The notes under the pieces were generated by a model. That model searched no databases and was not told the DNA's origin. It saw only the letters and a program-made list of their open reading frames with translations. Shown piece after piece: positions 19,418 to 21,721 of a stretch of 64,000 nt of DNA (its first letter is position 1; each line of letters starts with the position of its first letter). The translations under genes were made by a program, and so were the position numbers. Source of the stretch: an uncultured Candidatus Saccharibacteria bacterium (lineage in GTDB: Bacteria > Patescibacteriota > Saccharimonadia > Saccharimonadales > JALRHH01); the NCBI GenBank assembly GCA_964639295.1, contig CAZXDT010000001.1:52784-116783 (forward strand). The letters are read 5' to 3'.

Positions 19418-19840
19418 CTAGCGATTTTTGTGACGTCTTAATCCAGCTACCTTGAGGCGTACGGCCGAACGGTCGATCATCGCTTGGGCCTTATCAAGTT
19501 CGACTTGATCTTTGGCTTCTGCTTTTTGTTTCTTGGCGAGTTCTAGTGCCTTTTCAGCCTCGGCAGCTACGATTTCATCTGGGCTGTCGGCATCGTCTAC
19601 AAGTATGCGTAATTTAGTAGTGTCGATTTCTACCACACCACCATTAATAGCAAAGTATTCAAGAGATTGGTCATTATCACTCTTGTTGCGACGAACCGTA
19701 AGTACACCAGGAACAGCAATAGTCACGAGTGGCTCATGGCCCGGATAGACCGCAATCTCACCAGAAGAAGTAGGCAAGACGACTTCATACACATCGTCAT
19801 CCATCTTTAAACCGGTAAGGGTGATGAGCTGTAGTTTCAT
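19418..19840 (-). CDS. atpC: F-type ATP synthase epsilon subunit
   Basis: MKLQLITLTG..SSGEIAVYPGHEPL, typical epsilon. Start ATG overlaps the stop of the 61-aa ORF (ATGA). Confidence 0.85.
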   Translation of the reverse strand: MKLQLITLTGLKMDDDVYEVVLPTSSGEIAVYPGHEPLVTIAVPGVLTVRRNKSDNDQSLEYFAINGGVVEIDTTKLRILVDDADSPDEIVAAEAEKALELAKKQKAEAKDQVELDKAQAMIDRSAVRLKVAGLRRHKNR

Positions 19841-20022
19841 GTTAATTCGCTCGCGTCTACGGCTATACAACCGACCAGGTTTTGTACTGCTTCTATACTC
19901 GTTTGCTCAATCATGCCATTAATATCAAGAAGGGTCTCAAATGTTGCAAGTTCGGGAGCGGGAGCTTGTTCTACCCTCATAGGGTAAGCCTCAAATACAA
20001 GTGTCTGAGTTTTAGCTACCAT
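19837..20022 (-). CDS. Small ORF (61 aa) filling the atpD-atpC gap, translationally coupled at both ends
   Basis: Start ATG overlaps the atpD stop (TAATG). Stop TGA overlaps the atpC ATG (ATGA). No homology recognised. Confidence 0.35.
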   Translation of the reverse strand: MVAKTQTLVFEAYPMRVEQAPAPELATFETLLDINGMIEQTSIEAVQNLVGCIAVDASELT

Positions 20023-21410
20023 TATTTGACCTGACTAATGTCACCCTTCATGTAGAAGGCGCTTTCTGGCTTGTTATCGTGCTTGCCGTCAAGGATTTCT
20101 TTGAACCCAGAGATTGTATCTTTGAGGCTCACGTACTGACCAGGTGCGCCAGTAAAGCCTTCCGCAACGTGGAATGGCTGTGATAGGAATCGTTGAATAC
20201 GACGGGCACGGCTAACGGTTTGCTTGTCCTCGTCTGATAGTTCTTCCATGCCGAGGATAGCGATAATGTCCTGGAGGTCCTTGTAGCGCTGGAGTACTCG
20301 TTGTACCTCACGAGCAACGTTATAGTGTTCCTCACCAACGATTTCTGGGTCAAGGATGGTTGAGTTAGAGTCGAGCGGGTCAACAGCAGGGTAGATACCG
20401 ATTTCTGTCAGACCACGGTTCAGTGAAATTGTTGAGTCAAGGTGAGAGAAGGTTGTAGCAGGGGCAGGGTCAGTAAGGTCATCCGCAGGCACATATACAG
20501 CCTGCATACTTGTTACAGAACCCTTCTTAGTGGAAGTAATACGCTCTTGAAGAGCACCCATTTCTTGCTGCAAGTTTGGTTGGTAACCTACTGCAGATGG
20601 CAGACGGCCAAGCAGGGCAGAAACCTCTGAACCAGCCTGAGTGAAACGGAAGATGTTGTCGATGAACAACAACACGTCTTTACCCTCGTCACGGAAAGCT
20701 TCAGCCATAGTTAGACCAGTCAAGGCAACACGAAGACGAGCCCCAGGGGGTTCGTTCATCTGACCAAAGACCAATGAAGTCTTGTCGAGTACTCCAGAGT
20801 CTTTCATTTCGTGGTAGAGGTCGTTACCTTCACGGGTACGCTCACCAACACCTGCGAACACAGAGTTACCAGAGTGGAATTTAGCGATGTTGTTGATAAG
20901 TTCCTGGATAAGTACGGTTTTACCCACACCAGCACCACCAAAGAGTCCAACTTTACCACCCTTAGAAATTGGGGCAATAAGGTCGATCACCTTGATACCT
21001 GTCTCGAGGATTTCGGTCTTGCTTGACTGCTCAGTAAAGGCAGGGGGTTGGCGGTGAATAGGAGCGCGTTTGCCCTTAATAACCGCAGGCTTACCGTCAA
21101 TTGGATCACCTACTACGTTAAACATACGTCCTTGAGTCTCAGGACCGACAGGCACGCTAATTGGCGCACCTGTTGCTTCAACAGCTGCACCACGCTTGAG
21201 ATCATCAGTTGTGCTGAGCGCAACTGCACGAACGGTTGTCTCACTAAGGTGCTGTGCAACCTCAAGTACCAAGTCACCACCCTTGCGGCGAACTATAAGT
21301 GCATCGTAGATTGCGGGTAATGAGCCTTTATCAAATTCTGCGTCCACAACCACACCAACAACTTGGGTGATCTGTCCGTTCTTAGTTTTTTCTACCGTTG
21401 CTGCTGTCAT
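20022..21410 (-). CDS. atpD: F-type ATP synthase beta subunit
   Basis: Walker A GGAGVGKT; beta-subunit signature throughout. Confidence 0.95.
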
Positions 21411-21721
21411 GATTGTTCTCCTTGTTGTGGTTGTCTTGATTGAAATTGTTGTAACTGTTCTTCGGTATGACTGGCTAATATCTCGAGGGATCTGCCGTGG
21501 AGTATTGCTCCACTCAAGAATTGTGCCATCTGCGCCGCTCCGTACGCATCAAAGCCTTGCGCGAACCACATATCACCTCGTTCCATAAGAACTGTGTGGG
21601 GGTTATCGAATTTGGGCTGTTCAGTCGCATATATTGGCTGAAATTTCTCCAAATCAGGACGTAGTTCCGTGTGACCTATTACGGGCGCAATAATAGTCAT
21701 GTTGCGGTTACCAATTTTCAT
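21407..21721 (-). CDS. Small ORF (104 aa) between atpG and atpD, translationally coupled at both ends
   Basis: Start overlaps the atpG stop (TAATG). Stop overlaps the atpD start (ATGA). Soluble, Gln-rich C-terminus, no known motif. Confidence 0.5.

Follow-up and report, generated by a model that had tools for sequence, protein, structure and literature searches.

We analyzed a 64,000-nucleotide stretch of DNA (the window) from an uncultured Candidatus Saccharibacteria bacterium (contig CAZXDT010000001.1, positions 52,784 to 116,783). The window carries a complete F-type ATP synthase (atp) operon on its minus strand, in the order atpB-E-F-H-A-G-ORF104-D-ORF61-C. The two small open reading frames (ORFs) that interrupt the F1 genes, ORF104 and ORF61, are best read from their sequence as genuine translated small-protein genes, not as chance frames or RNA elements. 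The overall explanation that we favor, and hold to be probable, is that they are real genes in exchangeable relay-cistron slots of the F1 half of the operon. Judged from gene order in related loci, three such cassette slots, at the alpha-gamma, gamma-beta, and beta-epsilon junctions, are a general Saccharibacteria pattern, and ORF104 and ORF61 fill two of them. The alpha-gamma slot is vacant in the window genome, with a spacer of 7 nt, and is filled in about 20 to 30% of relatives.

A preliminary description of this operon, made from the DNA letters alone, had given the same gene order, which agrees with the list of ORFs and the Pfam matches. It also noted stop-start overlaps (TAATG or ATGA) at both ends of each small ORF, and direct reading of the sequence placed one at all four junctions (Table 1). 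The extra gaps that it reported are present, but they measure 310 nt (atpG-atpD) and 181 nt (atpD-atpC) and not 312 and 180 nt. Frames fitting so exactly were held to be unlikely by chance, and the numbers agree: at the base composition of the window, the probability of a random open frame is ~0.003 for 103 codons and ~0.034 for 60 codons, and ORF104 and ORF61 are the sole small ORFs (25 to 200 amino acids [aa]) in the 64-kb window that overlap large ORFs on both sides. As had also been proposed, neither protein has a hydrophobic segment (maximum Kyte-Doolittle score of <1.0 in a 19-residue window), and no family was found for either in Pfam (E up to 1) or NCBIfam.

Cassette slots in the F1 genes of Saccharibacteria

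We surveyed about 160 loci found through atpG, 78 of them from Saccharibacteria genomes and 80 from metagenomes, and counted at least 150 nt between adjacent atp genes as an insert. The window locus is called WIN, relative loci have L numbers, and distant relatives of ORF104 have P numbers. At the atpG-atpD junction, 33 of 74 metagenome loci had an insert, as did about half of those from genomes (45 to 55% overall); at atpA-atpG and atpD-atpC, the metagenome counts were 16 of 70 and 8 of 52, respectively. With ORF boundaries used, the other junctions were nearly empty (atpE-atpF, 0/91; atpF-atpH, 0/107; atpH-atpA, 1/111), and a few longer atpB-atpE spacers showed no bridging by ORFs. The slots were vacant in about half of the loci. 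Occupancy was patchy on a tree of atpA, atpG, and atpD, and sister taxa frequently differed.

The occupants were mostly singletons or orphans by all-against-all BLASTP and phmmer, and 65 of the 70 scanned had no Pfam family; the exceptions include the 23S-rRNA-IVP/Avd-like four-helix-bundle family and one HXXEE membrane protein. An isoelectric point (pI) below 5.5 was predicted for 58 of 84 occupants versus 21% of the long ORFs of the window. For cassettes other than ORF104, the ratio of nonsynonymous to synonymous differences per site (pN/pS) was 0.2 to 0.6, which indicates that the predicted cassette proteins are constrained, under moderate to strong purifying selection. PADLOC matched none of 70 slot ORFs, PHROGs matched one of 70 (an Avd-like protein), and tblastn against phages returned nothing. 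We also considered that the occupants might form one fast-evolving superfamily. This idea stayed unproven, with singletons in the BLASTP and phmmer comparisons and only a few weak links between occupants (A1 with a 135-aa ORF of L007, hhalign E of 0.004; L007 with the second L086 ORF, E of 4e-5).

Individual loci showed further variation. The atpG-atpD slot of Nanosynbacter-like genomes holds a basic IVP/Avd-like protein of 116 to 130 aa (PF05635, E of 2e-28; PHROG "Avd protein of DGR"; Table 1). Metagenome contig L086, a close relative (atpG 83% identical to that of the window), has four filled junctions, from delta-alpha to beta-epsilon (1370-1489, 3021-3508, 4364-4937, and 6326-6463). Its delta-alpha occupant, of 39 codons, is the only one among 111 loci, and its atpG-atpD slot contains a chain of three ORFs. 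In L067, the atpG-atpD slot has a tandem pair of ORFs (6863-7159 and 7159-7488) that are weakly similar to each other (phmmer E of 0.001), which suggests a tandem duplication inside the slot. The beta-epsilon inserts of L009 (4443-4808), L011 (8654-8962), and L020 (8385-8747) encode hydrophobic proteins of 100 to 120 aa (grand average of hydropathy ~0.7) that are not stop-start coupled; by composition they look like membrane proteins and thus like a second occupant class beside the acidic coupled ORFs. L017 carries a 2.9-kb atpD-atpC insertion (8263-11142) with ORFs of 450, 152, and 111 aa, far above the usual cassette size. An apparent alpha-gamma cassette in L064 (5362-5820) is an atpA fragment, 90% identical to residues 311 to 445 of L082 atpA, and atpA of L064 looks split or frameshifted in this metagenome-assembled genome.

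Inserts are held open, probably as relay cistrons

We scored a gap as bridged when it was spanned by one sense ORF or by a chain of ORFs, each stop lying within 20 nt of the next start. Among 147 distinct gaps of 60 to 1,000 nt, 132 were fully bridged by sense ORFs, compared with ~21 of 147 once the gap interiors were shuffled. Inserts that were at least 85% open numbered 56 of 71 on the sense strand versus 10 of 71 on the antisense strand. One clade has atpG-atpD spacers of only 66 to 90 nt, and these are mini-ORFs of 24 to 32 codons (MNKSR...IRGEK) whose lengths are multiples of 3 in 17 of 17 cases. Chains of two and three ORFs within a slot were checked by hand, and an automated tally gave chains of up to four.

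Two junction elements accompany this pattern. The first, kept regardless of the occupant, is a Shine-Dalgarno (SD) sequence (GGAGG) with an ATG overlapping the atpG stop, in the context GGAGGCnATGAAnTAATG. The second, AAGGAGAACAATAATG, is kept regardless of occupant or vacancy and combines the atpD SD with a stop overlapping the atpD ATG. Because this atpD SD is embedded in the cassette end, most cassettes, ORF104 included, end in ...GE(Q/K). The window itself has the features of a relay cistron: a start-stop overlap and an SD in atpG, the atpD SD within ORF104, and a frame that is kept despite sequence change. By its position and frame, ORF104 is shown to lie in a frame-conserved, stop-start-coupled arrangement with the F1 genes, with which it is predicted to be cotranscribed. 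Direct reading of the sequence upstream of atpC revealed only a weak SD, which would make translation of atpC probably dependent on coupling.

In a slot, then, the upstream F1 gene has at its 3' end an SD and an ATG overlapping its own stop, and ~15 nt ahead of the downstream F1 gene lie the SD of that gene and a stop overlapping its ATG. The DNA between the two elements is held as a sense ORF or ORF chain. Frame conservation suggests that ribosomes leaving one F1 gene go on to translate the insert and end at the start codon that follows, and the slot would then be a natural bicistronic-design, or termination-reinitiation, relay. Both gaps of the window would be exactly filled because the relay keeps inserts open up to the next start. 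The preliminary description took coupling at all four junctions as a sign of stoichiometric F1 subunits. Since the relay rule also covers the 24-codon mini-ORFs and the chains, tight coupling marks a need for an open frame and not stoichiometric subunits, and the general rule explains the coupling better than the earlier proposal does.

Occupants are probably exchanged between genomes

Identity comparisons showed that the histories of the occupants are decoupled from those of the flanking genes. Between L005 and L085, atpG is 92% identical and the slot ORF 50%; between L001 and L084, the values are 86% and 45%. WIN shares 84% identity in atpG and 86 to 91% in the ORF with L001 and L005. In the window's clade, nucleotide identity drops at the ORF borders from 80 to 90% to about 50%. 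In L144 and L152, the G-D cassettes are 99 to 100% identical (synonymous divergence [pS], 0 to 0.012), whereas atpG has a pS of 0.35 and the A-G cassettes show no relationship. The D-C cassette is likewise 100% identical between L080 and L082 (pS, 0.025), with an atpG pS of 0.53 and unrelated cassettes in the other two slots. Conversely, atpG of L073 and L165 is 99% identical and the cassette just 82% (pN/pS, 0.2), and occupants are swapped between genomes with F1 genes that are 96 to 99% identical.

The most parsimonious account is that homologous recombination in the conserved flanks would replace cassettes or exchange them. Natural competence of Saccharibacteria, for which 221 bp of homology can suffice for recombination (PMC10633639), fits such an exchange. 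Positions 19300-22700 of the window contained neither inverted repeats nor meaningful direct repeats, and promoter, terminator, and repeat scans around the inserts gave nothing above chance. Terminal repeats or target duplications marking the inserts were not found, and L080 alone had a junction duplication. There, the first atpG-atpD cassette ORF (6879-7214) ends in a 14-residue copy of the atpG C terminus (...ELAGITGGAEAIQ; 93%), with 16 nt repeated. We rejected duplication of the flanking gene end as a general insertion scar, since it occurs in L080 only, and we rejected an integron- or transposon-type cassette, since the window and, with the exception of L080, the relatives' junctions have no attC-like inverted repeat, terminal repeat, or target-site duplication.

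Several observations weigh against the explanation by exchangeable relay slots. The synonymous sites of the window's clade are saturated (pS, 0.5 to 0.8), so allele swapping and episodic fast evolution are not cleanly separable there, and the clear cases of exchange come from other clades. The SD of atpD is itself strong. About 15 of the 147 gaps are unbridged and contain independently initiated genes, for example for IVP-like and membrane proteins. Finally, the H-A junction, likewise flanked by conserved atpA, is nearly unused, which a model of the slots as safe landing pads leaves unexplained.

Within the slot explanation, one functional reading is that the occupants are selfish or conflict-driven cargo (immunity, antidefense, or addiction functions) unrelated to the enzyme. 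They would persist and spread because a slot flanked by highly conserved, well-expressed genes moves readily by transformation and resists deletion. The presence/absence polymorphism, sharp borders, nonhomologous replacement, and near-identical cassettes in diverged backbones all fit this reading, as does the natural competence of the group. In Nanosynbacter-like genomes, the same slot holds an IVP/Avd-like family, which is associated with intervening sequences and diversity-generating retroelements, and conflict systems typically feature small, acidic, hypervariable proteins. On the other side, searches of PADLOC, PHROGs, and phages matched nothing save the Avd-like family, no toxin or nuclease partner gene lies nearby, terminal repeats and target duplications were not found, and avoidance of the H-A and Fo junctions is left unexplained. 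On balance, we find selfish cargo doubtful.

ORF104 is a new protein family with an uncertain link to F1

About 10 homologues of ORF104 were found, with identities of 41 to 100%. Three close relatives (87 to 100% identity) came from a word-indexed search of 5.8 billion proteins and seven further ones (42 to 49%, all small proteins) from an exhaustive HMMER search of 1.84 billion representatives, and a profile search confirmed nine relatives in total. The distant relatives keep 41 to 52% identity, with invariant residues, and the invariant or near-invariant positions of the alignment are spread over the full length. In all seven relatives with readable context, three close (L001-L005) and four distant (P0007, P0008, P0010, and P0012), the gene directly follows atpG and overlaps its stop, and atpD lies downstream wherever the contig extends far enough. 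The open frame at the gamma-beta junction is thus conserved across genomes, as the preliminary description had proposed to check. The ratio of substitution rates (dN/dS) that it had also called for is 0.02 to 0.07 among WIN, L001, and L005, pointing to purifying selection; pN/pS is 0.09 to 0.13, compared with 0.16 to 0.18 for atpG, a level as low as in atpA, atpD, and atpG.

An AlphaFold2 (AF2) model built from a 10-sequence alignment supported a small helical fold (predicted local distance difference test [pLDDT] of 84; predicted template modeling score of 0.70), the outcome of the proposed structure prediction. The model has a conserved, extended N terminus of ~22 residues at low confidence (conserved segment GNRNM-IIAP-IG-ELRPDL), followed by helices at residues 41 to 54, 59 to 70, and 76 to 96. 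ORF104 had no match in Pfam, NCBIfam, PHROGs, PADLOC, PDB, or BFVD; the PDB sequence-profile search gave nothing at E up to 10, and the best E in the BFVD fold search was only 1.5. A jackhmmer search from ORF104 with decoys recruited nothing outside the known family. From its conservation and predicted fold, ORF104 is a new family of selected, small, helical, soluble proteins. The nearest relative without a cassette, L008, has a 61-nt atpG-atpD spacer (6865-6930) that forms a 21-codon coupled mini-ORF, MMNTHIELRKQYQSPMNEGER. Its ends (H-x-ELR and ...GER) resemble those of ORF104 (GHTELRPD ... QGEQ), and it may be a deletion remnant.

The preliminary description saw ORF104 and ORF61 as candidate stoichiometric regulatory or inhibitory subunits. 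Such subunits would bind the F1 central stalk or a catalytic interface, as functional analogues of zeta, IF1, or AtpTheta, a view that we now think rather unlikely. In its favor, the slots are nearly confined to the alpha-gamma-beta-epsilon block, and members of the ORF104 family, which purifying selection preserves, always occupy the gamma-beta junction. The conserved N-terminal 22 residues of ORF104, modeled with low confidence, precede a compact helical body; zeta and IF1 have a flexible N-terminal segment and a small helical body. Known ATPase inhibitors are also small, lineage specific, and mutually nonhomologous, which makes repeated invention plausible. Against a subunit role, the slots are vacant in about half of the lineages, sister taxa included, unrelated proteins substitute for one another between genomes with atpG 92 to 99% identical, one slot can hold several ORFs in tandem (as many as four in the automated tally), and some occupants are IVP/Avd-like or membrane proteins. 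The relay rule accounts for the coupling, the 24-codon mini-ORFs included, and searches found no resemblance to zeta, IF1, or epsilon in either sequence or fold. The ATP synthase was nonessential by transposon sequencing in Southlakia, the single Saccharibacterium so tested (PMC10633639), and the operon may therefore tolerate passengers.

A bona fide F1Fo subunit would be present wherever the enzyme is and would coevolve with it; about half of the slots are vacant, and divergence of the occupants is decoupled from that of atpG. Swapping between near-identical F1 backgrounds is unlike the usual behavior of a dedicated partner of an ultraconserved enzyme. We infer that the slot products are dispensable accessory proteins and not ATP synthase subunits. 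Of the proposed ATP synthase-associated module, real coding genes at the F1 junctions stand; a dedicated subunit is made less likely by the vacant slots, the swapping, and the unrelated occupants. The near confinement of the slots to the alpha-gamma-beta-epsilon block leaves room for a dispensable, lineage-specific modulator of F1. For ORF104, we put cargo unrelated to the enzyme close to, but short of, an even chance, and only slightly lower a lineage-specific F1 modulator acting in hydrolysis control or assembly; little or no function takes the remainder, a share that is larger for ORF61. In a more speculative version, which we would not expect to hold, the F1 junctions are both a birthplace and an exchange market for a large and so far unrecognized set of small proteins acting on ATP synthase, where relay cistrons, forced to stay open and made in subunit-like amounts, repeatedly become lineage-specific F1 modulators and are traded by transformation. 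If this were true, ORF104 would be a mature example and ORF61 a young one, and such proteins would be hydrolysis brakes or assembly aids like zeta, IF1, and AtpTheta.

ORF61 is probably a young coding gene

The in-frame codon usage of ORF61 scored 0.264 bits/codon, compared with a mean of 0.244 for real genes, and no off-frame window equaled it. Its GC content by codon position is 0.60/0.39/0.34. Only one homologue is known, an ORF of 45 aa that L086 has at this junction (E of 1e-7 by pairwise BLASTP, 54% identity over 26 aa) and whose flanking atpD and atpC are 88% and 81% identical to those of the window. In the nearest relative, L001 (atpD 93% identical), ORF61 is missing and atpD and atpC overlap directly. 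The proposed conservation across genomes therefore found support for ORF61 in the positional homologue of L086 and failed in L001. Apart from the L086 ORF, no match was found among 5.8 billion proteins or, by tblastn, in phages, and neither the rest of the window nor the first 83 loci held anything similar at the nucleotide or protein level. Its codon usage and distribution suggest that ORF61 is probably coding and young, and apart from serving the relay, its peptide may do little.

That the inserts are pure translational spacers, in which the open frame alone matters and the peptides are functionless by-products, is quite improbable overall. The frame is indeed kept while the sequence is not in the 24- to 32-codon mini-ORFs and in most slots, and ORF61 is a near-orphan missing from the closest relative, with a poor single-sequence AF2 model (pLDDT of 61). 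Such a role does not account for ORF104, with its low pN/pS, its identity to distant relatives, its invariant residues, and its confident fold, nor for the other cassettes, whose pN/pS is not near 1. The acidic bias of the occupants and the gene-like codon usage of ORF61 also indicate that the product is selected. A chance open frame, an annotation artifact, or a conserved RNA element in place of a protein has almost nothing left to commend it: ORF61 taken alone is short, and a random 60-codon frame would be open at a P of ~0.03, but Rfam gave zero matches across 19300-22700, the pN/pS of ORF104 and the codon-position GC of ORF61 are protein-like, and gaps in relatives are bridged far more often than shuffled ones, so that for ORF104 this alternative is effectively refuted.

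Operon features

The coordinates of the operon, its coupling signals, and the IVP/Avd-like occupants are collected in Table 1. The atpH product (delta/OSCP) has 128 aa, about 50 residues fewer than a typical bacterial delta subunit, and those of relatives have 129 to 134 aa; it may be a truncated peripheral-stalk subunit throughout Saccharibacteria. A 96-aa ORF (26174-26464, minus strand) adjoins atpB upstream, where a related contig has ATPase_gene1 (atpI-like, PF09527).

TABLE 1. Genes and coupling signals of the atp operon in the window, and IVP/Avd-like occupants of the atpG-atpD slot in related loci
Feature	Coordinates	Strand	Basis or remark
atpB	25331-26158	-	Subunit a, by Pfam on the gene calls of a syntenic relative
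atpE	25086-25283	-	Subunit c, by Pfam on the gene calls of a syntenic relative
atpF	24511-25083	-	Subunit b, by Pfam on the gene calls of a syntenic relative
atpH	24123-24509	-	Delta, by Pfam on the gene calls of a syntenic relative
atpA (F1 alpha, 507 aa)	22595-24118	-	Alpha, by Pfam on a syntenic relative
atpG (F1 gamma, 288 aa)	21721-22587	-	Pfam PF00231, E of 2e-86; upstream flank of gamma-beta slot
SD GGAGG in atpG 3' end, serving the ORF104 start	21732-21736	-	Direct reading
TAATG, atpG stop/ORF104 start overlap	21719-21723	-	Direct reading
ORF104 (104 aa, pI 5.4)	21407-21721	-	Occupant of gamma-beta slot
atpD SD AAGGAG in last ORF104 codons	21418-21423	-	Direct reading; encodes C-terminal ...QGEQ
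ATGA, ORF104 stop/atpD start overlap	21407-21410	-	Direct reading
atpD (F1 beta, 462 aa)	20022-21410	-	Pfam PF00006, PF02874, PF22919; flanks both slots
TAATG, atpD stop/ORF61 start overlap	20020-20024	-	Direct reading
ORF61 (61 aa, acidic, pI 4.05)	19837-20022	-	Occupant of beta-epsilon slot
ATGA, ORF61 stop/atpC start overlap	19837-19840	-	Direct reading
atpC (F1 epsilon, 140 aa)	19418-19840	-	Pfam PF02823, E of 1e-18; downstream flank
IVP/Avd-like occupants	L012 6898-7248; L060 6897-7277; L061 3446-3823; L063 2352-2714; L068 6906-7298; L146 4395-4772; L158 1095-1487		PF05635

Implications and comparison with known systems

Few bacterial gene clusters are as conserved as the atp operon, and hypervariable, recombining orphan genes in the F1 block of about half a class are unexpected. 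A search of the full-text literature found no description of the slot ORFs or of such an operon architecture. Translational coupling, small accessory proteins, and recombining cassettes are each known, and what appears to be new is that they are combined in the F1 operon throughout a bacterial class. Under the relay rule, the perfect fit of the inserts has a concrete and testable reason, and the rule cautions against taking tight coupling as proof of a subunit. The survey supplies more than 100 small dark proteins, probably well expressed, with an F1 modulator, unrelated cargo, and a by-product as the hypotheses. Saccharibacteria such as Southlakia can be transformed with short homology arms (PMC10633639). 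The slots may let gene birth from translated spacers, and competence-driven movement of genes via conserved flanks, be studied directly.

Among known regulators, zeta (PF07345/DUF1476) belongs to the alphaproteobacterial F1Fo, as in Paracoccus, IF1 (PF04568) is mitochondrial, AtpTheta is cyanobacterial, and the C-terminal domain of epsilon is PF00401. Like zeta, IF1, and AtpTheta, the slot ORFs are small, soluble, lineage restricted, and linked to ATP synthase, in their case by operon position, and the ORF104 model resembles zeta and IF1 in its conserved, probably flexible N terminus and small helical body. Of these, only ORF104 is encoded inside the operon, and it is hypervariable, exchangeable, and often missing, and any binding of it to F1 is hypothetical. 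Neither ORF104 nor ORF61 matched the zeta profile (Pfam E up to 1; PDB profile E up to 10), and the predicted fold is not a zeta-like four-helix bundle. Searches of Pfam and the exhaustive HMMER search, which recruited only the seven small relatives, revealed no homology to IF1, the epsilon C-terminal domain, or AtpTheta.

Rex et al. reportedly described translational coupling in the Escherichia coli atp operon in 1994, and Mutalik et al. are said to have introduced synthetic bicistronic-design leader cistrons in 2013. The slots share with both the stop-start overlap (TAATG/ATGA), a downstream SD inside the upstream cistron, and a frame that stays open while its sequence is free. They differ in that the slot cistrons run from 21 to ~190 codons, are often folded and selected, as ORF104 is predicted to be, can be chained, and are probably exchanged horizontally. 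Non-subunit small ORFs within atp operons are also known in atpI, atpZ, and the N-ATPase genes atpQ and atpR, but these encode conserved membrane proteins at the Fo end, whereas ORF104 and ORF61 are soluble, acidic, hypervariable, and placed between F1 genes.

The IVP/Avd-like family PF05635 likewise provides small genes inside highly conserved, highly expressed loci and occupies the same gamma-beta slot in relatives. Unlike ORF104 and ORF61, neither of which matches PF05635, the products of its genes are basic, and the genes lack stop-start coupling and are set off by spacers of their own. We found no recombinase, attC-like repeat, or toxin partner with the cassettes. With polymorphic surface and immunity loci, the slots share the drops in identity at their borders, nonhomologous alleles in near-identical backbones, and identical alleles in diverged ones. 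What sets the slots apart is that they hold tiny cytoplasmic ORFs in a core bioenergetic operon and must preserve the translation of the next gene.

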